Source: an uncultured bacterium (GTDB taxonomy: Bacteria; Acidobacteriota; Thermoanaerobaculia; Multivoradales; JAHZIX01). From it: a stretch of DNA of 64,000 nucleotides. Positions 3,001 to 18,811 of the stretch are shown here, one piece after another (within the stretch, counting starts at the first letter, position 1; every line of letters begins with the position of its first letter). A program made the position numbers and the translations under genes. The stretch is taken from NCBI GenBank assembly GCA_965368975.1, contig CBDUPA010000018.1, positions 64,001-128,000 on the forward strand, given 5' to 3'. The notes under the pieces are model-generated. The model did not search any database and was not told the DNA's origin. It saw nothing but the letters and a program-made list of their open reading frames with translations.

Positions 3001-3232
3001 CGGAGACGAATTCCAGATCCGCCGGCAGCACGTCGAGCACCACGATGTCGTCGCAGTCGTTGGTGGTCGACGCACAGTTGTAGGTAATGCGGTAGGTGAA
3101 GTTGCTACCGGTATCGACCACATTGCCGGGGCCCACGCCCTGAACTGCTTTGGCCAACGGAAAGGTCTGGGCCAGCATCAGCCCCGGAAAAGCCAAACCT
3201 GTGATCAACGCCAGGATAAACAACCGAATCAC
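1..3232 (-). CDS. Large secreted adhesin-like protein with DUF11-type and SdrD B-like (Cna-B) repeats; 3' end beyond window
   Basis: Missing from the ORF track because it has no stop in the window. Manual translation from GTG 3232 (GGAGGG RBS at 3245-3250) gives the signal peptide MIRLFILALITGLAFPGLMLAQ, then DUF11-like TYRITYNC..VVLDVLP and VTVVDTLPAG units, then SdrD-B motifs SLGDFVWLDTNGNGIQD, SLGNYVWFDLDADGVQD and GYYLFEDLPPGGYFVRF. Confidence 0.85.
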   Translation of the reverse strand, partial: MIRLFILALITGLAFPGLMLAQTFPLAKAVQGVGPGNVVDTGSNFTYRITYNCASTTNDCDDIVVLDVLPADLEFVSVLATGDVATVNAPAVGTLGTGLPGGPQVEFIFNTPLAAGSAGDLDITVRFRNGSTPDGTTRTNTATATGTNVPPSTSNPVDVTANATFMPRLQKSLSGGQALLGFDSTYNITVGALNNSGSLNVSAVTVVDTLPAGAIFVSANNGGAYDAIGHTVTWDNGGAGFSATVSSPLNLQVTVRYESPPFNDGDMVTNTVNATMTPLGGSPQAVGPVGLTHDVEAFVETPVLDLDKRLGGGYPSPALGQTFLYDVLIENDGNIPLDSITVTDTVPAQLDVVSVSTGDYNSGYTGLVTISYSTNLGGPSVLGSSPGNTNANFPIPALAAGEYVTSIEWAFAGPIPVGMRAVNNSNRARVEATLLATDNLGNPVNTGDSVQNCIDGTAPATLVSGPTAVMDSDCHSFNVSEPFTYSSPNKRELSGGPYIPGQTVSFEIEVDNQTQASEPLVNAVVTDLLPAGVQFVAASETFAANGTGVTVANFEVLPNFDGAGSTLLRWTLSGTIAPGQNIDVRFDAEVLTGVISGTLTNTGSQTHNTPGVLVRCSGGSDTDTLDQDGDASTADRLCRDNENFTIAAVAQLTSEKLVQGQCDVGFTKFPNFGVTVPGGLIDYRETVTNVGTVPVTGFVIVDILPEVGDTGVLDLNPRDSFWAPILVGPITPPPGGAVFYSTSPNPCRPEVGGPVSGCDPPGWTTVPPSPISSVRAFKVEFGSRVLNPLDTLDFQWRMIAPSDVPLAASLVTPAAGDIAWNSFGYQGTRVDGGTLNAEPLKVGIIAKAPPTSSLGDFVWLDTNGNGIQDDGPTGVNDVPVRLYSPGPDGVAKTGDDVLVANSITADDMFGNPGWYLFSDLTPASYYVEFTPPTNFDVTAPDQGGNDALDSDVDPLLLCTPLVSLGPGEDNPTLDLGLLPPTTASLGNYVWFDLDADGVQDEPVAEGVNGVTVELYEDADGDGTPEPGGDDGPPVEVQATADDAFAAPGYYLFEDLPPGGYFVRFVLPPSATGFTSRD

Positions 3233-3358
3233 TCGACACAGAATCCCTCCGAGCATGGCTCGTCTCCTCTGCACATGTAGCAATTTGAGGATCATCCCTC
3301 ATTTCCAAAAAGAGGGCGATCTAGATGAACTCAGATGATACCGAAGCTATCGCGAGAA

Positions 3359-4102
3359 TCAACGACGAAGTAGCGGCAGGGCAACAGCAGACAGCAGCAA
3401 GATCAGCAGCACCATGCCCCACTCATCGAGCGTGGGAATCGTCACGACCGGAGTCGGAGCCACGGCCGGGTCATAGGAAAGGGTCCACGCGAAGCCATCA
3501 CCGGCGCCAGGTATCGGCTCCGTATCGGTCACCGTGAAGGTGACCGAAGTGATCGGGCCAAACAGCTCGACGGTGCCACAACCTCCATTCGGGTTGCCTC
3601 CCGCAAGGTCTTCGCAACCTCCCAAGAGCGCCTGGGCCGGCGTCGAGTTGAGCACCGATCCCGTGACTTCGAATTCCGGGTTGCCTGATAAGCGAGCCAC
3701 GGTCACGCCACCGAAGTCAACGGTTCCGAAGTCCAGATTGACGAAATGGAAGCGCGGATTGAGCACTGGTTGCGAGAAGGTAACAGTCAGGTCGGCGGAA
3801 CCAACGGTGCCGCCGGCATCCACACTACCGATGGACCAGACCGTACCCACGGGCGGCGTCGGCGTGAACCAGACGTCTGGATAGTTCGCACTACCGTCGA
3901 CCGGTATCGTAAGGCTCAGCAAGGTATTCACAGCACTGATGGCATTCCCCGTGCTGGCGGTGCCGGTCACCGCGCCGCCGAAGTCGAAGGTAGTGTTACT
4001 GGTCCAGTTGGCGAAGACCTGCTGTGCGCTGGCGGCAGAAGGGACCAGCAGCACCAGAGCGGCGAACAGAGACAGGGCGACGCGGAAGCAAGTTCGGAAC
4101 AT
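3359..4102 (-). CDS. IPTL-CTERM sorting domain surface protein
   Basis: Signal peptide MFRTCFRVALSLFAALVLLVPSAASA; C-terminal IPTLDEWGMVLLILLLSAVALPLLRR (IPTL motif, TM helix, basic tail). Confidence 0.85.
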   Translation of the reverse strand: MFRTCFRVALSLFAALVLLVPSAASAQQVFANWTSNTTFDFGGAVTGTASTGNAISAVNTLLSLTIPVDGSANYPDVWFTPTPPVGTVWSIGSVDAGGTVGSADLTVTFSQPVLNPRFHFVNLDFGTVDFGGVTVARLSGNPEFEVTGSVLNSTPAQALLGGCEDLAGGNPNGGCGTVELFGPITSVTFTVTDTEPIPGAGDGFAWTLSYDPAVAPTPVVTIPTLDEWGMVLLILLLSAVALPLLRR

Positions 4103-4152
4103 GGGGCTCTCCTTCAGGGTAGAGTTGCAAGACATCGATACCCAGAAGGCAT

Positions 4153-4168
4153 AGCAAAGCCAGTGCCA
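4153..4168 (-). promoter_or_regulatory. sigma54 (-24/-12) promoter for the IPTL-CTERM gene
   Basis: Minus strand TGGCAC-TGGCT-TTGCT, matching consensus TGGCAC-N5-TTGCW, about 50 bp upstream of ATG 4102. Confidence 0.8.
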
Positions 4169-4208
4169 GGTGCGACGACAGTTAGGTGGTGCCAACGCAC
4201 GTCCCCGC

Positions 4209-4266
4209 GGACACCATCGTACACAAATGAACATACCTGGACATGCCGACGAACATCCTTGGACAT
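4209..4266. repeat. Six helically phased GnACAY direct repeats (candidate enhancer/UAS)
   Basis: GGACAC 4209, GTACAC 4219, GAACAT 4229, GGACAT 4239, GAACAT 4251, GGACAT 4261 (spacings 10,10,10,12,10), upstream of the sigma54 promoter at 4153-4168. Confidence 0.6.
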
Positions 4267-4309
4267 GGCTGATGCCGTCAGCGCTATCCGAACCGACTCG
4301 CGAGTCAGT

Positions 4310-6004
4310 TCACGGGTCGGACAAGAGCCCTAGGCCTCGCGCGCGTCGCTTGAGGCCCGCTAGCGAGACACGCAACTCGGCCGCCCCCCGCCGCAAGCTG
4401 CCACCATTGCGTTCCAGGACCTGCCTCAACTCCTGCTCCGAGATATCGACTGCTTTGCGCAGCTGCGAACAATCGTCGATCAGGCGGTACAGCGTCGGCC
4501 GCGAGACACCCAGGGCCTGCGCCGCCGGTTTGAGCTGCCAGTGGTGCTGCTCCAGCACCTGCAACAATTCCTCCTCCGTCACCTCGACCGCACGCCGGAA
4601 GCGCCCGGAGTCCGTCACCGACGGCTCTGTGGGCCGCACCACGCTGGTGTGCTGGGTCTGCTGCTCGATCGCGGCTGGCCGGGACGCCGGAGAAGGCTTG
4701 GGAGACGGCAGCAGCCGCTCCAGCGAGGCTGCGTCGGTGTGCGGGTCAGGGCTGTTGCGGTACATCACCAGCTGGCGCGCTACGTTACGCAGCTGACGCA
4801 CGTTGCCTGGCCAGTCGTAGCGCACCAGCCGGGCCACCAGTTGCGCCGGCGGCCACGGCGTCTCGGAACCAGTGTGCTCCAGCGTCTCGGGCGTCGTCAG
4901 GTCCGCCAGTTCGCGGCCCAGAAAGTGGTAGAGCAAGCGGGCCACATCGTCGCGTCGCTGGCGCAGCGGCGGCAGGTGGATTTCGCAGCCGGCCAGACGG
5001 TACAGCAAGGGCGCCCGGAACGAACCACGCTCGATCGCCGCTTCCAGGTCCTCGTCGGTCGCCGCCAGCACCCGCACGTCGATCTGACGGCTCTCGGCAC
5101 TGCCCACGGCATGGATCTCACCACTCTCCAACGCCCGCAGCAGCGCGACCTGCACCTCCAGCGGCGCGGCTCCGATCTCGTCCAGAAACAGCGTGCCGCC
5201 CTCGGCGCGCTGGAAGAACCCCTGCTTGGCACGGTCGGCACCGGTATAGGCTCCGCGCACGGCACCGAACAACTCGGCCGCCGCCAGTGACGTCGGCAAG
5301 GCGCCCATGTTGACCGCCACGAAAGGCCGGTGGCGCCGGCGGCCGATATCGTGCAACGCGCGCGCTGCCAATTCTTTTCCGGTACCGCTCTCGCCACGTA
5401 GCAACACCGGTACGTCCAGCTCGGCCGCGGCGCGCACCTCCTGGCGCAAACGCAGGATGGCGTCCGACTCGCCTTCCAGACCAAACGACGGCAACACCGG
5501 CGGCACCGGGTCCATCAGATGTAGCAACAGCGCCACCCGGCGCGCCAGCACCAGCACGACACCGGCTTCGATCTGCGTCGCGGTCAGTGCCATGCGGCCG
5601 GTCAGCACCTCGTCGTTGACGCGCACCGAGGTCTTGCACTGGTTGGCATCGAGCGTCACGCCCCCCTCGGCCTCAGTGCCGCCTGCCCCCGGCAAGAGCA
5701 AGAGCGGGCGACGGCTCAGATGCGGCTCTTCCAGGGGCCGCGGCACCGCGCTGCCGGCAGCCGCCCCGACGAACAGTGGGTGCAGACGCGACAGCTGCAC
5801 CGGCTGCCCCGACACCAACTCGGGGAGCACCACGCGTTCCCCCACCCGCCGCGGGTCCGGATGGCTCAGGATGACCACCCCTGGCACTCGCGGACTCTGG
5901 TCGAGGCTCGCCAGGTGATCGGTCGTGCACGTGGTTTCCTGTGTCGGATCTCCAGCGTTCATCGAAGCCCCGGCATCGAACCCAGACATCGCTTGCATTG
6001 GCAT
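4310..6004 (-). CDS. sigma54-dependent enhancer-binding protein (FHA-like N-terminus, AAA+, tandem Fis-type HTH); start uncertain
   Basis: Walker A GESGTGKE, GAYTGA loop, Walker B FLDEIG and WPGNVRQL. Two HTHs: AAQALGVSRPTLYR and AAELRVSLAGLKRR. Confidence 0.9.
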   Translation of the reverse strand: MPMQAMSGFDAGASMNAGDPTQETTCTTDHLASLDQSPRVPGVVILSHPDPRRVGERVVLPELVSGQPVQLSRLHPLFVGAAAGSAVPRPLEEPHLSRRPLLLLPGAGGTEAEGGVTLDANQCKTSVRVNDEVLTGRMALTATQIEAGVVLVLARRVALLLHLMDPVPPVLPSFGLEGESDAILRLRQEVRAAAELDVPVLLRGESGTGKELAARALHDIGRRRHRPFVAVNMGALPTSLAAAELFGAVRGAYTGADRAKQGFFQRAEGGTLFLDEIGAAPLEVQVALLRALESGEIHAVGSAESRQIDVRVLAATDEDLEAAIERGSFRAPLLYRLAGCEIHLPPLRQRRDDVARLLYHFLGRELADLTTPETLEHTGSETPWPPAQLVARLVRYDWPGNVRQLRNVARQLVMYRNSPDPHTDAASLERLLPSPKPSPASRPAAIEQQTQHTSVVRPTEPSVTDSGRFRRAVEVTEEELLQVLEQHHWQLKPAAQALGVSRPTLYRLIDDCSQLRKAVDISEQELRQVLERNGGSLRRGAAELRVSLAGLKRRARGLGLLSDP

Positions 6005-6050
6005 GGCCAGAGTGTACTCGATTCCGAAACCGCCTTCGAAGCGTCGAATC

Positions 6051-6066
6051 TGGCATGTGCTTTGCT
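6051..6066 (+). promoter_or_regulatory. sigma54 promoter for ORF 6196
   Basis: TGGCAT-GTGCT-TTGCT. Confidence 0.75.
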
Positions 6067-6195
6067 AGAGTCCATCCATATTCCGGACCGGTTTTCCAGG
6101 CACAGAAGACCGGTTCAAAGAAATTCGCATTCTGATTATGATGTCAGGATCGCGAGAAGTGACGCCAACCCGTTTGATGTACTCAAGGAGTTCCA

Positions 6196-6753
6196 ATGGC
6201 TCTCAAGCATCCCAACGCCATCCCTGCGGGCCTCATCCCCGCGGGCACCGACGACAACTTCGACTACTACGCAAAGTACGAGGCTTCTGGAAACACCCTC
6301 AACTTCTACTCCGATCCTGAGGGCACCGAAGCAACGACTCCGCCTGGCTGTGTCACCGACAAGAACAAGAAGTTCGGACACATCCTGGTGATGACCAACA
6401 ACTCAGAAGGTACCTTCGCCGATCCGGCGGTGACATGGGAAGGCCAGGTTCCGAACACGACTCCACCGCCCCCCATCAGCGCCGTCACCCGTTCCACGGA
6501 AGGCGAAGGCTTCTCGTTCGTCGACGACAACGACCCGCGACCGGAAAACACGACCACGTATCACTTCACCATCTGGGTACACCCCAACGCGGGCGGCAAT
6601 CCGACCGGTCATGAAGAAGTCGCGCCTCAGGCCGTGCCGATGGGTCCCGGCCCCGTGGTCATCGGCTTCGGCCCCAGCGGCACAGAGCACGGCTTCGATC
6701 CGACCGTGGTCAACAAGGGTGAGTACGGGGGCGACGGCGGCACCGGTAGCTGA
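6196..6753 (+). CDS. Hypothetical 185-aa protein, beta-rich, C-terminal DPxVxN motif (DP-EP-like)
   Basis: AAGGAG RBS and an upstream sigma54 promoter; ends ...YHFTIWV...FDPTVVNKG. Family assignment is tentative. Confidence 0.7.
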   Translation: MALKHPNAIPAGLIPAGTDDNFDYYAKYEASGNTLNFYSDPEGTEATTPPGCVTDKNKKFGHILVMTNNSEGTFADPAVTWEGQVPNTTPPPPISAVTRSTEGEGFSFVDDNDPRPENTTTYHFTIWVHPNAGGNPTGHEEVAPQAVPMGPGPVVIGFGPSGTEHGFDPTVVNKGEYGGDGGTGS

Positions 6754-6800
6754 ACCAGCAACTCCCTGAGCAGCTGCAAAGCAGCGCGGCCGACCACCGC

Positions 6801-9545
6801 TCAGTTGGTGGTCGGCTGGCTGGCCGCCGCGGAGAGACCCAGGCGCGACCGTAACTCGTCGAACCAGGGAAACGAGAACCAGCGCGGTTCGAAGTCTTGC
6901 TCCAGCGCACGCCGAGCGTTGACCAGGGCCGAAGCCTCGTCGCCGACCAGCGCGTAGACCAGGGCCGCCTCGTAGCTCACCTGCGGGTTGTCCGGAAACT
7001 GACGCAGTGCCGCCTGTACCGACGCCACGGCCTCCTCGTGCCGCTGCAGGCGGGCCTGCGCCTGCGCCCGCACGGTCAGCAGCGCCTCCGGCCGCGGATC
7101 GTCCGCCGCTAGCTCCAAGACGCGCCCGTAGAGCTGCGCCGCGACGTCCTCGTGACCCAGTAACAGCTCGGCATCCGCCAAGTTGAGCGCGGTATAGGGC
7201 GACGATGGACCCAGGCCAAAGGCCTGATGGAAGCGCGCGGCAGCCTCCTGGTAGCGCTGCAGCAGCAGGTAAGCTGTGCCTAGGTTGGTCAGCTCGGTAA
7301 CCTCCGGCGAGCGCTCCACCAACCGCTCGTAGAGCTCGGCCGCACGCTGTGCACTGCCGTTGAGCAGTTCCAGCTGTGCCAGCCGCGACAGGCCATCGAA
7401 GTGATCCGGCGCCAGCCGCAGGCCCGCCTCCAGACTGGCACGCGCCCCCTCGACGTCCCCTTGGCGGTAGAGCAGGTCCGCCAGGTCGAAGTAATAGGCC
7501 AACGACGGCAGTCTCTCGACCGCCTCACGCATCGCCGCCACCGCTTCCACGCCGCGTCCGCGCCGCTCCAGCAACAAGGCCCCATGCATCAGGCTCAGAG
7601 CATTGCCCGGCTCCAAGCGTCGCAGCTTGTCCAAGTGGCCTTCCGCCTCGTCCAGACGGCCAGCGATACGCGCCACCTGTATCGAGCGCGCCAACACCTG
7701 CGCATCTTCAGGTGCCAGCTCCCGGGCCCGCCGCAGTGCCGCCTCGGCTCGCTCCAGATCGTCTCGGTCGCGTTGCTCCTGGAAGCGCTGCAGGTAGATC
7801 TGCACGCGCAGCAGCGGCGCCGCCAGGAAGCGTGGTGACGACTGCTCCAGGGTCTCCAGGTCGCTCAGCAACTGCGTCGAAGAACGCACCGTCGTCCGCT
7901 GTAGGTAGCTCTGGTAGAGGCGCAGGAACCTCTCATAGTCCTCGGCGCGCACCTCCAGATCCGGGACACCCGACTGCAGCCGTTCGTCGGGATAGCCACG
8001 TCGCAGGTGGTCGAGTACTGCTCGCGAGGTCACTAGCAGCTGCCGCCGATCGACACTGAAGCTCTCCGTCCACAGCACCCGGCCGTCGCTGCCTCGTACG
8101 CGCCGCAGCACCGCCTGACAGGCGCGTCGATCACACTCCAACCGTGACGTCAGAACCTCGTCGGCAGCTACCGTGCGCGCCAGCTCGACCAGGTCTGCTT
8201 GCGTACCACCTTCGGCCATGGTCCCCTCCACCGGTGCCAGCCGCCGAAAGCCGAGGATGCCCCGCAGCAAGGCCGTATGGACCGCATTCGCCGTCAACTG
8301 CAGATCTTCGCGCTCCTCCTCCTCATCCTGCCCGTTGACCACCACCGCTGTGTGCGGCACCGCGACATAGCGCTGCTCCATCGGCGGTCGCAAGTTCCAC
8401 CACAGTGCGCCCGCGAGCACAGCAACCGTCAGTGCCAGGATCACGATCCAGCCCGACTTCCTCGCCGAACCCGTCCGCGAAGATACCGTCGATGGCGTCT
8501 CCTGGAGGTCTGGCGGCACCGCCGAGGCCGGTTGTGGTTGCTCCCAGGCTGTCGGCCCGGCCGTGGCCTGCTCCCCTGACCCCAGGGTTGGAGCTGCCTG
8601 CTGAGCGTAGGATTCGTAGCTTTGCTGCAGCCCGCTCCCGCCATCGAACTGCGCCAGGTCGCGCAGGGCCTGTTCGGCACTCTGCGGTCGCTGCAGCGGG
8701 TCCTTCTCCATCAAGCGCTCCACAAAGGCCGAGAGCCCCGGCGGCACCATCGGGTCGAGGAGGTGCGGCGGCGGCGGCTTGGCGGTGCAGATTCGGTGCA
8801 CGATCATCGCCGGCGCTTCGGCCCGGAAAGGCGAGCGTCCGGTCAGCAACTCATAGAGGATCGACCCCAGAGCAAACAGATCCGTCCGCTGATCCACCGG
8901 CCGTCCCAAGACCTGCTCCGGCGCCATCGCGGTCATGGTGCCGGCGATGTGGCCCTCACGAGTCAACCGCGTCTCGTCGACACCCACGCCGAAGCGGCCG
9001 GCGATGCCGAAGTCCAGAATCTTGACCTGCTCGCCCTCGTCGCCGGTCTCACCATGGCTGAGCATGATGTTCTCCGGCTTCAAGTCGCGATGCACCACAC
9101 CCGCCGCGTGCGCCGCCGCCAACCCCCGCAACAACTGCCGCGCCATGCGTAGCACCCGCGACGGCTCCAGCGGCCCGTCGCGCAGAACCTGGCGGAGCGA
9201 GCGTCCGTCCACCAATTCCATGACGATCCACTCGCCGCTCTCCTCCTCCACCCAATCGTGCACTTGCACGATCGCCGAATGCCGCAGCCGAGCCACCAGC
9301 CGCGCCTCTCGGCGCAAGCGCTTCGCCTGGTTGCCCGAGTCCGTGCCCGGCCGGATCCGCTTCAGCGCCACCGGCCGATCGAGCCGAGAATCGAATCCGG
9401 CGTAGACCTCCCCCATGCCCCCCTCGCCCAGGCGGCCTTGCACCTGATAGGGGCCGACAGTCAAGCCCGACTCGGAAGAGATCTCCCCCGACGGGGTCGC
9501 CTCGGACAAGTCGAGCTCAGATGGGGGGTGCTGAGGCTCAGTCAT
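6801..9545 (-). CDS. Membrane Ser/Thr protein kinase with C-terminal TPR repeats
   Basis: LGEGGMGEVY, VALK, HRDLKPEN, DFG, APEQ and DLFALG motifs; TM segment WIVILALTVAVLAGALWW; TPR-like helices. Start placed at MTEPQ, which is uncertain. Confidence 0.92.
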   Translation of the reverse strand: MTEPQHPPSELDLSEATPSGEISSESGLTVGPYQVQGRLGEGGMGEVYAGFDSRLDRPVALKRIRPGTDSGNQAKRLRREARLVARLRHSAIVQVHDWVEEESGEWIVMELVDGRSLRQVLRDGPLEPSRVLRMARQLLRGLAAAHAAGVVHRDLKPENIMLSHGETGDEGEQVKILDFGIAGRFGVGVDETRLTREGHIAGTMTAMAPEQVLGRPVDQRTDLFALGSILYELLTGRSPFRAEAPAMIVHRICTAKPPPPHLLDPMVPPGLSAFVERLMEKDPLQRPQSAEQALRDLAQFDGGSGLQQSYESYAQQAAPTLGSGEQATAGPTAWEQPQPASAVPPDLQETPSTVSSRTGSARKSGWIVILALTVAVLAGALWWNLRPPMEQRYVAVPHTAVVVNGQDEEEEREDLQLTANAVHTALLRGILGFRRLAPVEGTMAEGGTQADLVELARTVAADEVLTSRLECDRRACQAVLRRVRGSDGRVLWTESFSVDRRQLLVTSRAVLDHLRRGYPDERLQSGVPDLEVRAEDYERFLRLYQSYLQRTTVRSSTQLLSDLETLEQSSPRFLAAPLLRVQIYLQRFQEQRDRDDLERAEAALRRARELAPEDAQVLARSIQVARIAGRLDEAEGHLDKLRRLEPGNALSLMHGALLLERRGRGVEAVAAMREAVERLPSLAYYFDLADLLYRQGDVEGARASLEAGLRLAPDHFDGLSRLAQLELLNGSAQRAAELYERLVERSPEVTELTNLGTAYLLLQRYQEAAARFHQAFGLGPSSPYTALNLADAELLLGHEDVAAQLYGRVLELAADDPRPEALLTVRAQAQARLQRHEEAVASVQAALRQFPDNPQVSYEAALVYALVGDEASALVNARRALEQDFEPRWFSFPWFDELRSRLGLSAAASQPTTN

Positions 9546-9651
9546 CGTAGATCCCGGAACCTTCGGTTCGGAGTCTTGGGATTCTACGCTAATCCTCAGG
9601 TCGTCTGCTTTCCGACAGCCGTAGGCGCAAGCTATCCACGATCGCCCACTC

Positions 9652-9686
9652 ATGTCCGTGGATGTCCAACGAACAGGAACGGACAC
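9652..9686. promoter_or_regulatory. Phased RTGTnC/GnACAN dyad (candidate UAS)
   Basis: ATGTCC 9652, ATGTCC 9662, GAACAG 9671, GGACAC 9681. Same motif and 10-bp phasing as 4209-4266. Confidence 0.5.
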
Positions 9687-9729
9687 CGAAAAACCGCTCC
9701 ACAAAGCCGAGAACCAGGCTCTCGGACAC

Positions 9730-9745
9730 TGGCACTACTCTTGCA
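9730..9745 (+). promoter_or_regulatory. Consensus sigma54 promoter
   Basis: TGGCAC-TACTC-TTGCA, an exact match to consensus. Confidence 0.85.
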
Positions 9746-9756
9746 TTTGACCAACA

Positions 9757-9882
9757 CCCACGAGGGTCTCATCGCAAGGCGGTCACCCGCTACGAGAGAA
9801 CAACAGTTCGGAGCGCTTCGACAGCTTCAGCGTCAACGACAGCTGTCGAAGAATCCCACCCCCTGTTTCAGGGGGCTTTTTT
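9757..9882 (+). ncRNA. Candidate sigma54-dependent small RNA or leader RNA
   Basis: Lies between the sigma54 promoter and an intrinsic terminator. Perfect 11-bp stem 9816-9826/9841-9851. No ATG-started ORF inside. Confidence 0.55.
9859..9882 (+). terminator. Rho-independent terminator
   Basis: CCCCCTG-TTT-CAGGGGG followed by CTTTTTT. Confidence 0.8.
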
Positions 9883-9916
9883 GTTGCACGAATTCCTGAG
9901 CATAGAGCTATCATAT

Positions 9917-9944
9917 TTGCGTTCTTATCAGTATCCGCTATGCT
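9917..9944 (+). promoter_or_regulatory. Possible sigma70-type promoter for the ATPase/deaminase operon
   Basis: TTGCGT-16 nt-TATGCT in a locally AT-rich stretch. Confidence 0.35.
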
Positions 9945-10098
9945 TATACCAATCTTCTCCACCGAAATCGAACCGATCTCGGTTTTTTCTCTCTAGGAAC
10001 GCGGTTGAGTCAGCCAGGAGCTGGCGTTGGGATCTGCATCTCGTCGAGAGCGGCCTGACGGCGGCAGCCTGGAAACCACTGTTTCTCAGGGAGAGCGC

Positions 10099-13000
10099 AT
10101 GTCTGAGTCCATTTCCAGAAATCGAGTTCTTACGATCGACCTTGATCGCTCGAGGGCACCTCGCGCCTTCCGTGATCAAAACAGTCTCTGGGCCAGAGAT
10201 CTTGCCCGCATCTATCGACTGATCAAACATCAGGTCGATTTGATTGCTCCAGACAAGAAAGACGATGAGCAAGAGTCCGAGTGTCGGTCAAAACACAGGA
10301 AAAGCGAACGGCCCTGGTTGTCAATCGCAATCTTCGGTCCCTCGGGGTGCGGCAAGAGTTCCCTGCTGCGAACCCTGGTTGGTGATGTCGAGCGGCCACG
10401 CCTCCTCCCTGCCAGCTTGCGCAGCAAGGTTGCCTCGCTCCCCGTAACAGATCCGACAACTTGGTCCTCGAACGAGCAGTTCCTCTATGCGTTCTTGGCG
10501 AGTGCGTTGGAAAGAGAGCAGGACGCGCAGCACGACGACGAGGGGCCGCGCACGCTGGCGCGAGGACTCACCCCGGTACAGCTCGCCTTCCAGGACGTCA
10601 ACGAATACCTGCGAGTGGTCGACGACCCAGGCAAGACCGACGAAAACGATCCGCTCGGCTTGAGTTTGCAGAAACTCGAACGCCACACGAGCGGCCTGCG
10701 TCTAAGAGCTGCTCTGGGTACGTTCATTGACAGCCTGGCCGCGGCGCTGCAAGCGAAGGTCGTGCTACTTCCGGTCGACGATCTGGACATGGCTCCGGAA
10801 CACTTGGTGGAGTCACTGCAGGCGTATCAAAGCTTTCTCGTGCACCCAAAGCTCATCCCCATTTTCACGTTCACGGAGCGCATGCCTGAGGAACTGATTG
10901 AAGCGCACTTCCGCCAGCGCCTACGGCTCAAGGGGGACTCTGGCTCCCCAAGGGCGCAACGGGAAGACAACGACTACTCCCGCTTGACGATCGCTGAACA
11001 GATGGCCGTGCAGTTTTTGTCTCGCTGCTTCCCCGTGCGCAACCGCATTCGCCTGGGTCCAGCTCCAGCACGGGTACAACGCGCTGTCTACCAGAGTAAG
11101 CACGGCACTCGGGAAGACAACAGCGAGAATCCCAAGGTCTTGGAACTTCTGATCACGGCCAGCTTCCTCTTGTTCGGTTACCCAGACGAGGAGGATGCAC
11201 ACCGGGTACGTGCTGCGCTGCGCCCCTCTACCCTGCGGCGTCAGCTACAAGTCGTCGACGGCATGGCCGACTGCTTTCTCCACACGCTGCGGTCCCCGCA
11301 GCTGGCTCAGATGTCCTTGTTGGAAGACAGCACGAGTGAACAACTGAAGAGCTTGGGACAGCTGGCGGCCGATGACAAGTTGCACCTACCGGCCTTGTCC
11401 TTGAAGCCAGGCTGGGACTCCGAGCCCGAGAACCGGCTACGCAACCGCTGGAGCGCTCTGCAGGGGTACCTCCTCGCTCCCAGCCGAGCCAGCAACGACA
11501 TGAAACGTCCGCACGGAGCCGGGTACTTGAAGCTAGCCCACGAGCTTCGGAAGCTCAATCGCAACGCAACCTGGGGCACGATCTTCGACAGAGCAAGCTG
11601 GACCTTGCTCAACGTCCACCGAGATACCCTGCGAGAACTCAGCCTCTATCTCGAAGACCTCTACAGCTGGAGTCCGCGAGAGCTGCGCAGCGTGGTGCTG
11701 AACAAGATCCTCAGTCAGCAGGGTGGTGTGAGACGCATGGTCGTCGACCGTTGGCTGAATCGTACCGATTATCGGCGCAGCCAGGTCTTGTCCTTGCTGG
11801 CGGCCAATATCTTCCGCCCCTGGATGGTCGGTGAGGAGCCCTATGGTGACGAGGAAGCTGCTGTCCGAGCACAGCAGCGAATCGACAGCCACCCAGAGGA
11901 ATCCATCGACCAGAGCTGGAATCCCAGCGAGAACAACTCCTATCCGCTTCTCGAACCTGTGCAGGTATGCGACCGTCTCACCATCTCCTCCATTCACGGA
12001 CTACTTTGGTTTATCGAGGTCACGATGGGTTTCTACCTACCGCAGGTTGTCGCACGCAACTGGCGACTCTCTATTTCAGGTGACGACAACCTCACAGAGC
12101 GTTTCAGCGGCAATGGCTGGGACCTGCAACGAGCTCCGGTGAATGCCGTGCGCGTAGCTGATGCAAAGCAGGAAGGCACAGCCTTCGGCATGCTGTTTCT
12201 AGATGCCGTGGGCTATAGCCGAGCGCTCGACCCGCAGGACAACTGGCAAGACAAATTGAAGCGCCAGAAAGTCTTACCTCTCCACGAGGACCAGGAAGCA
12301 GCGAACTTCGACTTAGAGGCCTTGGCCCAGGAACTGGACGAGCTGCAGCCGGTCGAGCCCAAGACGACACCGGCCGGACGCCTCCTCCTACGCCTCTGGA
12401 CCTGTTACGGCTTCAGCCAGGGCCGGTACTGGGCCGTTCTCTCGCTGTGGCGGGGTCTCGGCATTATCGGACAAGTCCTGGAACTCGAGTTGCGCAAGCG
12501 TCAGCCCTTGGAGAAGCTCGCGGCTTTCTATACCGCGAAGCTCTCAGAGCACACGACTGGTAGCCTGTATCCAAGGCTCACGAACCTCATCAGAGAGCAA
12601 GAAGAGAAGGCCAATGCAGAGTCCGCCCCAGACGCCCAGGAACTGGTCAGGATCTATCAGTCGTTGTGCCAAGACCTCGAGCGTCTGCTGCGCTCGCATT
12701 GCCTGGCAGGTATGGTCCCGGGTGCATTCCTCGAGCGCACCAAGGAAGAACGCTCCATGCATCTGGCCTTTCCGAGCTGGCAGCCGCATGACCTCGAAAC
12801 CGAGGGGGCGATCAGGACACTGGCCCAAGACCTGCTCGATTGGCTGATCTTCAACTGGCACGACAAGATCTTTCCCTTGCCTGCTGGAGACATCTGGATC
12901 GGTTGGCGCGACGATTTCGTCCGCCGCCTGCACGGGGATCTGATCCTCGGCTCGCTCTGGCCGCATATGAAGGGCAATTATCTGGACAGCCACTTGCGTT

Positions 13001-13674
13001 ACGACTCAGGGCAAGAGCTGGCCTGCCTACGCAGCCTCCGCGTCGACGGTAGTAAGGCCAGCCGACACTTCAACGCCACCCAGATCGCAACGGGAACACA
13101 TGTCAGCCACTGGACAGCCAGTCTGGCGGTGAGCACTTGGTCCGATACCCTCCTCACGTACTGGCGCGGCTGCCCATCCCTCTTGAAACTCCTTCTCACC
13201 TGCCCGGTGTTCTTGAGAAGTCCGCAACGGTTTGGTCCGCTGCCGGTAGACAGCGACTCGCAGCCCCTCAATGAAGTCACCCAGCACGACTTCAGGACCA
13301 CTCTGCAGAACTTGAGAGACATTCCACAGGCAGACGGTAAGCGCCCCGCGAGCATCGAAGCAACGGGTCCAGAACGTGTCCGACTCGCTTGGCTGCATCG
13401 CCTGGCCATTCCAGCGGAAGTTTGGGACACGATCGTCGACTACTGGCAATCCTGTGCAGGAACTCCGCCAGACACAGAACCAGCGCAGCAGACCGGTGAC
13501 TCTGAGCCAGAAACAGCTGAAGCAGAGGAGGCCGCGGCGGAAGAGCGGCAGGCTCCTGGTACCGGCTCAAGTCCACCTCCCCTCTTGGTCGATGTTCACG
13601 ACCTGGTACCCGACGAGTTCTGCATCCAGCGCATTCCATTGCAAGTCTTCAGCTTTGCCGGAGATCCTGAGTGA
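10099..13674 (+). CDS. rdrA: RADAR-like P-loop ATPase (RdrA-like)
   Basis: Walker A AIFGPSGCGKSS, Walker B VVLLPVDDLDM, long helical C-terminus. Its stop overlaps the GTG of the deaminase. ATG 10099 has an AGGGAG RBS. Confidence 0.75.
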   Translation: MSESISRNRVLTIDLDRSRAPRAFRDQNSLWARDLARIYRLIKHQVDLIAPDKKDDEQESECRSKHRKSERPWLSIAIFGPSGCGKSSLLRTLVGDVERPRLLPASLRSKVASLPVTDPTTWSSNEQFLYAFLASALEREQDAQHDDEGPRTLARGLTPVQLAFQDVNEYLRVVDDPGKTDENDPLGLSLQKLERHTSGLRLRAALGTFIDSLAAALQAKVVLLPVDDLDMAPEHLVESLQAYQSFLVHPKLIPIFTFTERMPEELIEAHFRQRLRLKGDSGSPRAQREDNDYSRLTIAEQMAVQFLSRCFPVRNRIRLGPAPARVQRAVYQSKHGTREDNSENPKVLELLITASFLLFGYPDEEDAHRVRAALRPSTLRRQLQVVDGMADCFLHTLRSPQLAQMSLLEDSTSEQLKSLGQLAADDKLHLPALSLKPGWDSEPENRLRNRWSALQGYLLAPSRASNDMKRPHGAGYLKLAHELRKLNRNATWGTIFDRASWTLLNVHRDTLRELSLYLEDLYSWSPRELRSVVLNKILSQQGGVRRMVVDRWLNRTDYRRSQVLSLLAANIFRPWMVGEEPYGDEEAAVRAQQRIDSHPEESIDQSWNPSENNSYPLLEPVQVCDRLTISSIHGLLWFIEVTMGFYLPQVVARNWRLSISGDDNLTERFSGNGWDLQRAPVNAVRVADAKQEGTAFGMLFLDAVGYSRALDPQDNWQDKLKRQKVLPLHEDQEAANFDLEALAQELDELQPVEPKTTPAGRLLLRLWTCYGFSQGRYWAVLSLWRGLGIIGQVLELELRKRQPLEKLAAFYTAKLSEHTTGSLYPRLTNLIREQEEKANAESAPDAQELVRIYQSLCQDLERLLRSHCLAGMVPGAFLERTKEERSMHLAFPSWQPHDLETEGAIRTLAQDLLDWLIFNWHDKIFPLPAGDIWIGWRDDFVRRLHGDLILGSLWPHMKGNYLDSHLRYDSGQELACLRSLRVDGSKASRHFNATQIATGTHVSHWTASLAVSTWSDTLLTYWRGCPSLLKLLLTCPVFLRSPQRFGPLPVDSDSQPLNEVTQHDFRTTLQNLRDIPQADGKRPASIEATGPERVRLAWLHRLAIPAEVWDTIVDYWQSCAGTPPDTEPAQQTGDSEPETAEAEEAAAEERQAPGTGSSPPPLLVDVHDLVPDEFCIQRIPLQVFSFAGDPE

Positions 13675-16600
13675 CCTCTCCCACGAGCCCTGGCCCCAGG
13701 TCTCTGCCGGCACTACCAATCCACATCCTGGGCCACATTGCGCCGATCCTGACCTGGACCGAAAGTGGCAACGTCAGCCGGCTGCCACCGACCTGGCAAA
13801 CGGAATCCGTCGCCTTTGCCGATCGCGAACGCGACTGGCTGCTACGCGAGCTACCGACCTACTCCTACACCAACGTCCAGGAGATCGTCCGTGGCACGCG
13901 CAAGGACCACAGTGGCCCCAAGCCCGTCCGCATGCCTTCAGCTTCTCGCTTCCCTTCCCTGTCGCCACCGGAAGGATTCGACCTGCAGGAGGCTTTTCGG
14001 GCCCTCAACCTGTACTTCTTGCTCTGGAACGGCACGGAACCCTGCGTCCGGCAGGGGCGCATGGAAGAACTCCATGAGCTGGCACTTCGGCTACCGGCTG
14101 GCCACATCGTGCGCCACTCCCACGCCCGTGCCATTTCGGAGGGTGTCCTCACACTCGAAGACGCTCTGGCTCTACCGGAACAAGTGACCCTGCTGCCCAG
14201 CAACTCTCACGGCCTCCGGACGATAGTGCGCAAGGGGCTGAGCGAGAGCCACTTACACCTGACTGGTGTCACCAGTGCCGAGGAAACCTGGGCCAACAAC
14301 CTGCTCAGTCCAATACCCAGCCGTCCCGTTCATGCCAGGAGCCGTCCCGAACAACGGCTCCTGACTCTCAACCTGTTTGCCGGTAGGTTGCTCGCTCTAG
14401 CCGTCTGGTACTCCCTGCAGCCTATCAATACACTCCGGCTCGACCACCTCCTCCTGCTGCAAGGACTCGACAGTCTGTACTTCGCGCGCACTGCAGCCGA
14501 AGAGAACTATGCGGTGCTCTGGCTTCATCGCAGCCTCAAACGCACGCTCGAACACACGGCCAAGAAGGCCCTGCCACTGCCGATGGAATACAGTTTTCTT
14601 CGTCGTTGGTTGAGTCCGGCCAGTCACCATCTCACACAGCGCGGCAAGTACCTACCCTCCAGCCTTCCAGAGAGCCTTACCGACCGTTGTAGGTACTTGC
14701 ACAAGCTACACTTGGCCGCTCACCTCCGGCTCGTCCAGCTTCCGCACCACCCCCGGAACGCCCCTCCGAGGCAAACCTCCCCGACAGGTCGTGACGGCCA
14801 CTACACACCCGACCACCGCTGGTTCTTCTTGCACGAAACACTCTTCCGTTACCTGGTGTGCCGCACGCACCACTGGCAGATGACGGCTCAACAAGGGGCC
14901 ACCACTGGTCTGTCTTACTTCCGTACCTACTACAGCTCCCAGCACCGGAAGCTGACCAAGATCAACGACTTTCAGTACGCCCGGCTTGTGTTTTCGCAGC
15001 TGCGACGCTGGCGTGGTCTGCGCGTCCTCGAAGGCCGGGTTGCTCCCCCAAAGCGGGCACAGCAGCTAGCTCACTGGATTCTGGCCTACGCACAGCAGGA
15101 GGATCGCCGTATCCGCAAGTTCGGCTTGGTCGTGCACTTCAAGAAGGAAGACGAAGACCAAGAAGAACGCCCGCTACGCAGTTCACGTGGCCTCCGCCTG
15201 CGCTGGGGAAAGCGGCGACGCCTGGTACGAGACGAAGGTCTTCGCCTGTACCGACTACTGCAGAGCCCGACTCCGGTGACGCCGTTTGTCGTCGGCATTG
15301 ATGCCTGTAACCTGGAGCTGGCGACCCCTCCCGAAGTGTTCGCTCCAGTCTTTCGCTTCCTACGAGAACTGCCGATCTCACTGAAGGGCAATAATCGGCG
15401 CTACGCTCCCTACTTCGAGCTCGACCCGGTAATCCGCAAGCTAGCAGAGAACCGCCGTTTGGGCATGACCTACCACGTCGGTGAGGACTTCCGACACCTG
15501 CTTTCCGGACTGCGTGCCATCCACGAGGTCGTTCTGTTCTTGGAACCGCAGCCAGGTGACCGCCTCGGTCACGGCACCGCGCTGGCCCTGCAGCCACGGG
15601 ACTGGCTAGAACACAACGGGTACCAGGCCGTCGTACCCCGCCTGGAGTGGCTCGACACGCTCGTCTGGGTCCACCATTTCCTGGGTCCCGGTGACGATCT
15701 CGTCGGCGAGCTCGGTATCGAGGACGAGATTCAGCGCCACAGTTGGAAGGTCTACAGCGAGGCCCTGAGGCGGCTGGACCACAATCATACCCATCCTCTC
15801 GATCAAGATCTGCATCCGCTCAGCTTGTGGGACGCCTGGTATTTGCGACAACTCGACCCTTATTGTGTCGACCTACCCAAGCTGCGGAGTCGCGAGTTGG
15901 GGCTACGCCCCCTACGCAGTGCATCGGAAGAGAGCCGGCGCTGGTACTCAGTGCAGGATCGCGTCTTGCAGCACATTAATGAGACCGTCGGGTCGCGCAA
16001 CGCGTACCTACTGCTTGCGCTCTACTGGCTCAGCCCGCTAGTTCGAGAAGCTGGCAATGAGATCCTGGTCATCAACATGCAGAAGCAGCACCGGCAATGG
16101 CTCGAGCTGTGCCAGCGCGTCGAGGAACGCATGAAGGACCTGATCCATGAACGTGAGCTTGTCGTCGAGGTCAACCCCTCAGCCAATCGCATCATTGGTC
16201 CGATGGCACGCTACGGCCAACACCACGTCTTCCAACTGACGCTCGACGAGAACCGCCGACTGTCCCGCAAGGTTCGCGTGTCGGTCAACACGGACAACCC
16301 AGCCGTTTGCAACACCACTCTGGCCCATGAGCACTACCTACTTGGCGAGATCCTGATCGGGCAAGGCGTGCCGGAAGCCGAGGTGGCGAAATGGTTGGAG
16401 TGGCTGCGCAGCAACGGCGAGGAATACAACTTCGTACGCCGACTACGAACTCCGGAAGAGGATTCGGACACCAAGAAGCTCTTCGACTGGTTGCGCAACA
16501 TTCGTCCGACGGTTCGAGACGCTGAGACGCGTCAGAGCAAACTCGACGCCTTCCATACCTGGCATCAGCGAACTCGCCTCCGTAGCCAGGGCTTCGAGCC

Positions 16601-16820
16601 CGATCTGATCGAGCAACACCCCGAAGTCCTGGACCGTATCCTCAGCCTCGAACAGCAGCTCGAGCACCAGCGAATCGCTCACGAGGACGAGATAGCCACC
16701 CGCCACCAACTCGACCAGGAGTATCGGCAGGTCCTCGACCGATACAAAGCCGAATTGGCTGAACGCGATCGCCTCTGGGAAGAGGTGAAGAAACTACGAC
16801 GAACTGCTGCTGGCACCTGA
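13671..16820 (+). CDS. rdrB: RADAR-like large adenosine deaminase (RdrB-like)
   Basis: Amidohydrolase/ADA motifs ESHLHLTG, GIDACNLE, TYHVGEDF, RLGHGTAL, VEVNPSAN and VNTDNP; 1049 aa; GTGA overlap with the ATPase. Confidence 0.8.
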   Translation: MTSPTSPGPRSLPALPIHILGHIAPILTWTESGNVSRLPPTWQTESVAFADRERDWLLRELPTYSYTNVQEIVRGTRKDHSGPKPVRMPSASRFPSLSPPEGFDLQEAFRALNLYFLLWNGTEPCVRQGRMEELHELALRLPAGHIVRHSHARAISEGVLTLEDALALPEQVTLLPSNSHGLRTIVRKGLSESHLHLTGVTSAEETWANNLLSPIPSRPVHARSRPEQRLLTLNLFAGRLLALAVWYSLQPINTLRLDHLLLLQGLDSLYFARTAAEENYAVLWLHRSLKRTLEHTAKKALPLPMEYSFLRRWLSPASHHLTQRGKYLPSSLPESLTDRCRYLHKLHLAAHLRLVQLPHHPRNAPPRQTSPTGRDGHYTPDHRWFFLHETLFRYLVCRTHHWQMTAQQGATTGLSYFRTYYSSQHRKLTKINDFQYARLVFSQLRRWRGLRVLEGRVAPPKRAQQLAHWILAYAQQEDRRIRKFGLVVHFKKEDEDQEERPLRSSRGLRLRWGKRRRLVRDEGLRLYRLLQSPTPVTPFVVGIDACNLELATPPEVFAPVFRFLRELPISLKGNNRRYAPYFELDPVIRKLAENRRLGMTYHVGEDFRHLLSGLRAIHEVVLFLEPQPGDRLGHGTALALQPRDWLEHNGYQAVVPRLEWLDTLVWVHHFLGPGDDLVGELGIEDEIQRHSWKVYSEALRRLDHNHTHPLDQDLHPLSLWDAWYLRQLDPYCVDLPKLRSRELGLRPLRSASEESRRWYSVQDRVLQHINETVGSRNAYLLLALYWLSPLVREAGNEILVINMQKQHRQWLELCQRVEERMKDLIHERELVVEVNPSANRIIGPMARYGQHHVFQLTLDENRRLSRKVRVSVNTDNPAVCNTTLAHEHYLLGEILIGQGVPEAEVAKWLEWLRSNGEEYNFVRRLRTPEEDSDTKKLFDWLRNIRPTVRDAETRQSKLDAFHTWHQRTRLRSQGFEPDLIEQHPEVLDRILSLEQQLEHQRIAHEDEIATRHQLDQEYRQVLDRYKAELAERDRLWEEVKKLRRTAAGT

Positions 16821-16838
16821 TCTCGGTACCCTCCGGGT

Positions 16839-17438
16839 TCAGTGCCCCGCGAGTCGCAACTGCTTCCTGAGCCACTCGGCTTGACGCTGGATCTTCTCGT
16901 ACTCTTTGGTATTCAGCCTCTGCCAAGCCAAGATGCACAGCAGCATCAAGACGAGGCCAGCGAGGTTGCCAGCCGAGATTTTCCAGTAAGCCCAATCCGG
17001 GGCGTTCGGAGATAAAAACACCCACAGGTTGAAGCTGACTACCAAGCAAGCACTGTTCAAGGCCCAACCGCGGCAGATGCGTAGCCGACTACGGCCGTAC
17101 TCCAAGTGTGCCCACAGGGCAGAGCCGTAGTGCACTAGGGTCCTGCGATCGTGATGATAGCTTTCGAACTTACCTCTGTAGACCAGATTGAAATGCTTCT
17201 TGTCCTGCCTGTCGAAAAGCCAGTCTGCCACTCGATCCGTGATGATCCCCAGCAGATAGGCAAAGGTAAGGACAGGCAACAGAGTCGTGATCGACGAGAC
17301 ACTGCCACCGAGATTCCTGGGATCGTAGCCGAAAAGAGTCGCCCCCAATAGAAACACCCACGCCAATGTGCCAAAGCCAATAACCAGCAACTCCACGAAG
17401 AACTGCGTGGTTGCCATGGTCCCACCTGAATCAGACAT
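16839..17438 (-). CDS. Hypothetical 4-TM membrane protein
   Basis: AAGGAGGT RBS before ATG 17438; four hydrophobic segments; convergent with the deaminase, 18-bp gap. Confidence 0.75.
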   Translation of the reverse strand: MSDSGGTMATTQFFVELLVIGFGTLAWVFLLGATLFGYDPRNLGGSVSSITTLLPVLTFAYLLGIITDRVADWLFDRQDKKHFNLVYRGKFESYHHDRRTLVHYGSALWAHLEYGRSRLRICRGWALNSACLVVSFNLWVFLSPNAPDWAYWKISAGNLAGLVLMLLCILAWQRLNTKEYEKIQRQAEWLRKQLRLAGH

Positions 17439-17605
17439 CGACACCTCCTTTGAAACTGAGGAAGCTGGTAGCGACAGTAGAGTCAATGAACTTTAGCATG
17501 CAGCGTGGCGTGAAACAGCTTCCTCACTGGTAACGCGGCTGATGAATTCAGTGTACGCTCAGCCGGTCGCGGCCATCACCGGTACCGACAGGCCCCAAAT
17601 CTTCT

Positions 17606-18811
17606 ATGCCACCCAGAAAACCCGGCAAGCACGCGCTGCTCTTCATCTTCATCACGGTCCTGCTCGACTCGATCGGCCTCGGCATCATCATCCCAGTGAT
17701 GCCAGAACTGATCATGGAACTGACGGGCGAGGGACTGGGCAAGGCCGCGACGTACGGTGGCTGGATGCTCTTTCTGTACGCCGCAGTGCAATTCCTATGC
17801 GCACCGCTGATCGGCAACCTGAGCGATCGCTTCGGTCGTCGGGTGGTGCTGCTGATGTCGCTGTTCGCCTTTGGTTGCGACTACTTGCTGATGGGTTTCG
17901 CACCGACGCTGAGCTGGTTGTTCGTGGGTCGCTTCATTGCCGGCATCGCCGGCGCGACGTACAGTCCGGCCTACGCTTTCATCGCGGACATCAGCACACC
18001 CGAGAAGCGCCCGCAGAACTTTGGCCTGGTCGGCGCTGCGTTCGGCATGGGCTTCATCCTCGGACCGGTGATCGGTGGCCTGCTGGGCGACTTCGGCCCC
18101 AGAATTCCATTCTTCGTTGCCGCGGGCATCGCATTTCTCACCTTTGCCTACGGCTTCCTCGTGCTACCCGAGAGTCTGCCTGAAGACCAGCGCCGCCCTT
18201 TCCAACTGAGCCGTGCCAATCCACTCGGGACCTTGCTGCACCTGCGTAAGTTTCCGGCTCTCATCGGCGGGCTCGGAGTCCTGTTCCTTTACTACATGGC
18301 ACACCACGTTTGCCCGGCAACATGGTCTTACTTCACCATCGAGCGATTCGGCTGGAGCGAACGGCAGATAGGCTACTCACTCGGCGGCATCGGTCTGGCC
18401 ATGGCCTTCAGCCAAGGCTACCTGACCCGGGTCCTGATTCCTCGTCTCGGACCCCGACGAGCAGCGGTGCTGGGTATCGTCGCCGCGAGTGTGGCCTACG
18501 TGGGTTTCGCCTTCGCGACTGCCGGTTGGATGCTCTTTGCCTGGATGACCCTGTGGGCACTGTGCGGGCTGACGGCTCCCTCGATCCAGGGCATCTTGTC
18601 GAGTCGGATCCCAGCCGATGCACAGGGCGAGTTGCAGGGCGGAATCGCCAGCCTCGGTAGCTTGGCGGCAATCGTGGCGCCGCCGGTGATGACGCAACTA
18701 TTCGGTTACTTCACGTCGGCCAAAGCGCCCGTGTACCTGCCGGGCGCCGCTTTCCTCTTGGCGGCGATTCTGCTGCTGGTGGCGTTGCTCTTGGTTCGCC
18801 GGTCGCACTGA
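17606..18811 (+). CDS. TCR/Tet-family MFS efflux transporter
   Basis: About 12 TMs; LDSIGLGIIIPVMP, motif A GNLSDRFGRR, motif C GFILGPVIGG. Confidence 0.9.
   Translation: MPPRKPGKHALLFIFITVLLDSIGLGIIIPVMPELIMELTGEGLGKAATYGGWMLFLYAAVQFLCAPLIGNLSDRFGRRVVLLMSLFAFGCDYLLMGFAPTLSWLFVGRFIAGIAGATYSPAYAFIADISTPEKRPQNFGLVGAAFGMGFILGPVIGGLLGDFGPRIPFFVAAGIAFLTFAYGFLVLPESLPEDQRRPFQLSRANPLGTLLHLRKFPALIGGLGVLFLYYMAHHVCPATWSYFTIERFGWSERQIGYSLGGIGLAMAFSQGYLTRVLIPRLGPRRAAVLGIVAASVAYVGFAFATAGWMLFAWMTLWALCGLTAPSIQGILSSRIPADAQGELQGGIASLGSLAAIVAPPVMTQLFGYFTSAKAPVYLPGAAFLLAAILLLVALLLVRRSH

Follow-up and report, generated by a model that had tools for sequence, protein, structure and literature searches.

Known RADAR systems and the locus under study

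In the RADAR system of Escherichia coli, rings of RdrA sit on a shell of RdrB, and infection triggers deamination of ATP and dATP that ends in abortive infection, as described in PMC9994260. The published subtypes are rdrAB by itself, a Csx27-associated form and a SLATT-associated form (as outlined in PMC7699616 and PMC11676413). RADAR is rare, and what triggers it and what its optional membrane partners do are presented as live questions in PMC9994260 and PMC11482910. Here, we describe a RADAR locus in a 64,000-nucleotide stretch (hereafter, the window) of contig CBDUPA010000018.1, from an uncultured bacterium of the Acidobacteriota (assembly GCA_965368975.1, positions 64,001 to 128,000). A previous reading of the same DNA, made from its letters alone (the sequence-only reading), had proposed that two adjacent genes encode such a system.

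Our analysis identifies the pair as an intact RADAR and a distant member of the known system. Together with an accessory membrane gene, it probably makes up a horizontally acquired anti-phage cassette of a clade centred on Acidobacteria. The features concerned, in window positions, are as follows.

10099..13674, + strand: rdrA-like AAA+ ATPase, 1191 aa (PADLOC, NCBIfam, 8FNT profile match, model against 8HR8)
13671..16820, + strand: rdrB-like enzyme of the adenosine-deaminase fold, 1049 aa (PADLOC, NCBIfam, 8FNW, model against 8HR7)
16446..16820, + strand: clade-specific helical C-terminal extension of RdrB, approximately residues 926-1049 (beyond the part superimposed on E. coli RdrB)
16839..17438, - strand: third gene, four-helix membrane protein, 199 aa, or 192 aa from an alternative start (homologues beside rdrAB of the clade)

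The gene pair is an intact RADAR

Both open reading frames (ORFs) were confirmed; they stand in tandem, overlap by 4 bp (GTGA) and are translationally coupled, as the sequence-only reading had described. The ATG of rdrA at 10099 is preceded by AGGGAG 5 nt upstream, while an alternative TTG at 10027 would give a protein of 1215 aa.

The best PADLOC matches were RdrA for the ATPase (E 2.6e-7) and RdrB for the deaminase (E 2.9e-25), and NCBIfam gave the same assignments (E 1.4e-17, 63 bits and E 2.7e-41, 142 bits). These scores do not reach the NCBIfam equivalog cut-offs NF041743 and NF041744 (600 and 800 bits). However, all five control pairs, taken from organisms of the published RADAR table, also stayed below them (42-117 and 165-214 bits). 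Because known RADAR pairs fail as well, the cut-offs do not discriminate, and exclusion of the window pair from RADAR on the grounds of this shortfall can be ruled out. Additionally, a profile of the clade RdrA matched 8FNT (E 1.3e-16), and RdrB matched 8FNW (E 1e-19).

AlphaFold models of RdrB and RdrA (predicted local distance difference test scores of 85.7 and 86.4) were compared with known structures using Foldseek and VIA. Foldseek ranked RdrB first for the RdrB model (E 3.5e-22, next family 4e-3) and RdrA first for the RdrA model (E 2.8e-13, next family 1e-2). In VIA, residues 10-1182 of the RdrA model were superimposed on residues 13-926 of 8HR8 (Z 22.6, root-mean-square deviation 4.4, 690 aligned), compared with a Z of 12.1 for the best non-RdrA structure. 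This alignment spans the RdrA-specific C-terminal helical lobe as well as the AAA+ core. Residues 20-925 of the RdrB model were placed on residues 1-798 of 8HR7 (Z 32.8, root-mean-square deviation 3.7, 679 aligned). Whereas plain adenosine deaminases aligned over about 300 residues with Z of at most 21, the match to 8HR7 covers the RdrB assembly insertions.

The proposed RADAR identity is thus borne out by profile matches and by models that lie nearly end to end on the cryo-EM structures of RdrA and RdrB. Of the checks that had been suggested along with it, defence hidden Markov models (HMMs) and structure prediction matched RdrA and RdrB, and a GC and codon profile confirmed the low GC reported below.

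A RADAR clade centred on Acidobacteria

A scan of GTDB gave 263 relatives, and the best 80 of these 263 loci were analysed (26 of the clade and 54 others, labelled L with a number). Their scores against the clade profile split sharply: 26 loci had at least 608 bits (at least 890 if full length), while 54 had at most 284 bits. In a FastTree phylogeny of 36 rows, from which 3 partial clade loci and 42 of the 54 distant loci were left out, 24 rows formed a clade with an SH-like support of 100, and the window fell into a subclade of 8 rows. For several of the distant loci, the organism appears in Table S1 of PMC9994260, so that these loci can be taken as known RADARs. Acidobacteria are absent from all 280 rows of that table.

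As labelled in their records, the 26 clade loci comprise 18 from Acidobacteriota, 1 from Aminicenantes, 3 from Pseudomonadota, 1 from Haliangium and 3 unclassified. In 22 of them rdrA precedes rdrB; contig ends truncate three others, and in L019 the 1.3 kb upstream contain no rdrA. The latter rdrB (L019:1274-4183), on a 4.6-kb contig, is possibly an orphan deaminase. The 34 best non-self RdrB matches within the clade are 52-64% identical, compared with 24-28% among the tested RADARs as given in PMC9994260.

The window thus represents a well-separated RADAR clade centred on Acidobacteria, in which RdrB carries a tail and the P-loop is altered, and its membrane partner is of an unnamed family. 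The clade extends RADAR to Acidobacteriota, at scores far below the NCBI naming cut-offs. The distinct subtype postulated by the sequence-only reading therefore finds support in the tree, although the reasons offered for it (protein size, a sigma54 module next door and a lack of other defence genes) were mostly wrong. A literature search yielded no publication joining RADAR, adenosine deaminase, Acidobacter and phage defense, a mention in Gao 2020/2023 or in supplements being possible, and the sole match for Thermoanaerobaculia together with defense system was irrelevant.

Conserved residues and protein lengths

RdrB retains an intact zinc and catalytic set (H194-L-H196, H602-V-G-E605, G633-H634-G and D875), as had been noted from the sequence. 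H194, H196, H602, H634, E605 and D875 are invariant in all 58 aligned homologues, and H194/H196/H602/H634/E605 stand in register with H152/H154/H498/H530/E501 of E. coli. The three-fold interface of the E. coli protein (E595-E597) corresponds in a gapped pairwise alignment to D711-Q712-D713, with aspartate in 35 and 41 of the 58 sequences.

This active site bears on the idea that the system acts chiefly by adenosine-to-inosine RNA editing, with its extensions serving to load RNA. Such editing was the original RADAR model, as summarised in PMC7699616, and the PDB titles of 8HRA and 8HRB refer to an 'RNA-loading state' of RdrA. However, the RdrB site is of the mononucleotide adenosine deaminase type, and E. 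coli RdrB is described in PMC9994260 as deaminating ATP and dATP but not hairpin RNA. We therefore regard RNA editing as a very improbable main activity.

In RdrA, Walker A (G85-K86-S87) and Walker B (D227-D228) align with G81/K82/T83 and D221/D222 of E. coli; the lysine is kept in 80 of 81 clade proteins and D227 in all 81. R380 is the probable sensor 2, being invariant in the 81 clade proteins and an arginine in 39 of 40 outside RdrAs, and we infer from the alignment that it corresponds to sensor-2 R377 of E. coli.

The sequence-only reading had called both proteins enlarged, which holds for RdrB but hardly for RdrA. Clade RdrBs measure 942-1201 aa (median 1053), while the longest RdrB in the published 280-row table, read by eye, has 951 aa; the window protein (1049 aa) surpasses all 280 because of its C-terminal tail and internal insertions. 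The longest RdrA in the table, again read by eye, has 1182 aa, only 9 aa fewer than that of the window. This, together with the 246 RdrA residues that fall into mostly-gap columns of the clade alignment as private variable loops, rules out an enlarged RdrA as a mark of the subtype. Clade RdrA homologues range from 777 to 1457 aa.

The RdrB tail of about 125 aa has no counterpart in E. coli RdrB. It is helical in the AlphaFold model and ends in two long helices (984-1010 and 1018-1048), which by eye look like a coiled coil in that model. Past the column of F921, all 58 aligned clade RdrB sequences have a further 42-164 residues. One clade rdrB (L021:799-3843) is broken by a single in-frame stop and is either a pseudogene or an assembly error.

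A membrane-protein gene accompanies the pair

The sequence-only reading saw no other defence genes nearby and overlooked a conserved membrane-protein gene that lies 18 bp beyond the rdrB stop, on the opposite strand. Its ATG at 17438, with AGGAGGT 4 nt upstream, gives 199 aa, and a second ATG at 17417, where the homologues begin, gives 192 aa. The family has its own invariant motif, EYGRSRLRICRGW.

Next to the pair, homologues with 42-48% identity occur in 6 of the 26 clade loci and in 0 of the 54 others. The gene is found just upstream of rdrA in L001, L002, L004, L005 and L006 and coupled downstream of rdrB in L013; in all six it overlaps an rdrA or rdrB ORF or lies at most 73 bp from it. 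The window's own subclade has the gene in 6 of 8 rows, the remaining two being L003, which lacks it, and L007, a 2.6-kb contig. Trees of the membrane protein and of RdrB both set L013 apart from the other six, which amounts to a single split. In L012 and L015 the place directly upstream of rdrA is taken by a SLATT_2 gene. The loci thus form a natural swap series, in which one RdrAB core occurs with SLATT, with the four-helix family or without a recognised partner, and which makes the contribution of the third gene testable.

The window protein had no sequence match in Pfam or the PDB, and gave only weak ones to Csx18 in PADLOC (E 0.035-0.043), to permeases in NCBIfam (E 0.009-0.03) and in PHROGs (E 0.27). 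The ESM Atlas returned 'hypothetical' clusters alone, with no usable named match; a search of phages gave nothing and one of plasmids a single fragmentary match. In the stretch L081:5780-8589, on a Streptomyces plasmid, this last copy follows a nucleoid-associated protein gene and a PDC-S33-like gene, possibly a second defence context for the family.

Sequence comparisons suggest, with somewhat better than even chances, that the membrane protein is a remote homologue of Csx27. It shares with the Csx27-like genes beside Lachnospiraceae RADARs a layout of 2+2 hydrophobic segments around a soluble middle. An hhalign comparison of the two families scored 31.3, whereas 60 block shuffles reached at most 24.5. 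Among 10,854 ORFs, the Csx27-like profile placed 3 of the 7 membrane copies at ranks 5-7 (E 0.002, 0.07 and 0.3), directly after four RADAR-adjacent genes, and in the reverse search a Csx27-like gene ranked 8th (E 0.03), first outside the membrane family. Moreover, 18 of 137 family members match PDC-M48A, as do the Csx27-like L045 and L064 beside Lachnospiraceae RADARs; a literature search on PDC-M48 found no publication. Homology to Csx27 is opposed by an hhalign probability of only 43%, over 34 columns, and by a poor global alignment (score 12.3). None of the 137 members matches the PADLOC Csx27 model at E 0.05, and comparing its profile with those of L010, L078 and the two-sequence A5 gave weak similarity or none.

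Using the profile built here, we also found Csx27-like genes upstream of distant RADARs at L040:5332-6048 and L078:5472-6146. Unnamed small genes directly 3' of clade rdrB in two loci are possible further accessory partners: two, one of them for a four-helix 253-aa protein, at L010:12901-13662 and 13659-14159, and genes for 184 and 132 aa at L016:7935-8489 and 8493-8891, the 132-aa product being weakly PDC-M50A.

Composition and genomic context

As stated by the sequence-only reading, the region is poorer in GC than its flanks: GC is 0.593 over 9700-17500 and 0.654 in the remaining window. The third-position GC content (GC3) and codon adaptation index (CAI) are 0.70 and 0.545 for rdrA and 0.72 and 0.566 for rdrB, at the low end among 33 window genes, 30 other genes serving as the reference (mean GC3 0.79 +/- 0.05, CAI 0.66 +/- 0.06). 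The membrane gene has the lowest GC (0.553) and CAI (0.511) of all 33. An excess of CTA/CTT codons, also claimed earlier, is clear in rdrB (0.22 of leucine codons, window-gene mean 0.085) but not in rdrA (0.13, less than one standard deviation from the mean).

Apart from rdrAB and the membrane gene, no window neighbour is kept in position among clade loci. The flanks are non-syntenic between these loci, and the cassette has a lower GC than its flanks in 15 of the 18 loci for which 4 kb or more of flank is available. Both the differing flanks and the low GC fit sporadic horizontal acquisition.

The adjacent sigma54 module, which had been taken as a sign of the subtype, proved unrelated. Homologues of the sigma54 ATPase and of the Ser/Thr kinase occur in 2 and 1 of the 26 clade loci, in no conserved position, which rules both out as components; for the 8 further window neighbours tested, clade loci contained no homologue. 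No tRNA, Rfam match or convincing flanking repeat was found around the cassette, promoter and terminator counts near it were at chance level, and a Pfam scan of 39 window ORFs (most ORFs below 200 aa beyond 28 kb being left out) revealed no integrase or transposase.

Other features of the window are given below.

2-9704, - strand: SdrD/DUF11 surface protein, IPTL-CTERM protein, sigma54 activator and Ser/Thr kinase-TPR cluster, unrelated to the cassette
9859-9990, + strand: hairpin resembling a terminator, with an AT-rich stretch behind it and rdrA shortly downstream, which may insulate the cassette (regional count at chance level)
17606-18811, + strand: MFS efflux gene of the TetA type, transcribed divergently from the membrane gene; its NCBIfam score for the Tet(A/B/C) family is 325 bits, short of the cut-off of 475, and clade loci do not keep it nearby
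40433-43639, - strand: 1068-aa ORF joining RmuC and sulfatase domains, a real fusion or a lost stop

Evidence against the proposed cassette

Several observations speak against an anti-phage cassette with an accessory membrane gene. The sensor-1 site (D253 in E. coli) is T259 in the window RdrA, and clade RdrAs have threonine or serine there (threonine in 78 of 81 proteins); aspartate is present in only 28 of 40 outside RdrAs, so it is not universal. A P-loop arginine (G-x-R-G-x-G-K, a signature derived in the present analysis and not a published one) occurs in 40 of 40 outside RdrAs and in 0 of 18 clade RdrAs, the window having S82 at this position; as far as the alignments go, its absence is a mark of this RADAR variant. 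Defence islands are rarely found around the clade: 10 of 118 flanking ORFs (chosen by a rough coding filter) match PADLOC at 1e-5, mostly via generic domains. Only L023, from Haliangium, resembles such an island, with a Type II methyltransferase and an AlbA_2-HATPase-SAVED protein (L023:17021-20770). As for the membrane gene, it is convergent in the window and not co-transcribed with rdrAB, 20 of the 26 clade loci lack it (contig ends truncate several of these), and its family forms 1668 clusters at 50% identity, far beyond the clade, so it occurs elsewhere too.

The scarcity of defence neighbours leaves some room for a non-defence role, such as a domesticated RdrAB that controls adenine nucleotides according to stress or energy state. 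The high conservation of RdrB in the clade, the altered P-loop and the mostly housekeeping or secreted-protein genes nearby would agree with this. However, the loci share no synteny, 15 of 18 are low in GC, copies occur in records labelled as Pseudomonadota or Myxococcota, and some loci have SLATT partners, so that we consider domestication improbable.

The points concerning the membrane gene bear on a different alternative, namely that only the two-gene RADAR is functional and the third gene is either a passenger or a small defence gene in its own right that shares insertion sites. Besides its convergent orientation, the gene has a strong Shine-Dalgarno sequence of its own. Around the fragmentary copy on the Streptomyces plasmid, none of the 20 features annotated within 8 kb is a RADAR gene, and L003 lacks the membrane gene although 7.0 kb upstream and 1.9 kb downstream are sequenced. 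Furthermore, RdrAB is sufficient in the characterised systems described in PMC9994260. Against this, the gene stays attached in three arrangements (upstream, downstream-coupled and convergent) while all other neighbours change, most rows of the window's subclade carry it, and its composition is like that of the pair. A passenger is therefore an unlikely though serious alternative, and we think that the membrane protein is probably a functional accessory.

Proposed mechanism

At its core, the system probably works as published for RADAR. By analogy with the E. coli system, RdrA rings would dock on an RdrB shell, and infection, perhaps sensed by the variable C-terminal lobe of RdrA, would lead RdrA to activate RdrB. 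The enzyme would then convert ATP and dATP to ITP and dITP (the inosine forms), poisoning the nucleotide pool and aborting phage replication. We hold it probable that ring-on-shell assembly, infection-triggered ATP/dATP deamination and abortive infection also apply to the window system.

More tentatively, the membrane protein may stand in the optional place of RdrC or RdrD, acting as a pore-type helper or a modulator, and may be interchangeable with SLATT within the clade. RdrD is described as putatively pore-forming in PMC11482910, Csx28 forms pores according to 10.1101/2021.11.02.466367, and in PMC11662929 Csx27 is reported to down-regulate Cas13b.

A membrane-anchored RADAR of three components can also be imagined. 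The RdrB tail would tether the shell to the membrane family, inosine-nucleotide production or ATP loss would gate a pore, and the altered P-loop would reflect a different trigger. The lead for such a tether is L003, which among the assessable subclade members is alone in lacking the membrane gene and has the shortest tail after the last motif (97 residues, compared with 131-180 in the six carriers). However, L009, L011, L016 and L021 have 138-172 tail residues though they too are without the gene, and we judge this arrangement unlikely. If true, nucleotide poisoning would be coupled to membrane depolarisation, and a family with over 1600 clusters would gain a function.

Comparison with known systems

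Cad1, the CARF-adenosine deaminase of type III CRISPR (9C67, 8Z3K), is likewise an immune effector of the adenosine-deaminase fold, and its PDB entries include ATP complexes. Unlike Cad1, the window RdrB has no CARF match in Pfam or PADLOC, and its N-terminal part aligns to RdrB. The PADLOC match of Cad1 covers only residues 823-893, and its structural Z is 19.2, compared with 32.8 for RdrB.

With SLATT-associated RADAR (rdrD, e.g. RADAR2 of Pluralibacter gergoviae) the clade shares an optional slot, the SLATT_2 genes of L012 and L015 being upstream of rdrA, and in PMC7699616 the SLATT of published systems is likewise described directly upstream. In contrast to these, the protein of the window contains four hydrophobic segments and does not match SLATT in Pfam, and SLATT is not among the 25 families listed, out of 42, for the 137 members.

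Csx27-associated RADAR (rdrABC; Gao et al. 2020, as presented in PMC7699616 and PMC11676413) similarly combines rdrAB with an adjacent gene for a membrane protein of four helices and about 200 aa. The window protein differs in having no direct Csx27 HMM match, a motif of its own and a convergent orientation.

The closest parallel in structure is the RADAR of E. coli P0304799.3 (8FNT/8FNV/8FNW; 8HR7-8HRC), from which the window system departs in its RdrB tail, the missing P-loop arginine, threonine at sensor 1, D-Q-D aligned to the E595-597 interface and the adjacent membrane gene. Identity in the structural alignments is only 13% for RdrA and 20% for RdrB. Nevertheless, the two have in common the gene order, the full RdrA fold with its C-terminal lobe, the RdrB fold over residues 20-925, the histidine tetrad with the catalytic glutamate, the Walker A lysine and the Walker B Asp-Asp.

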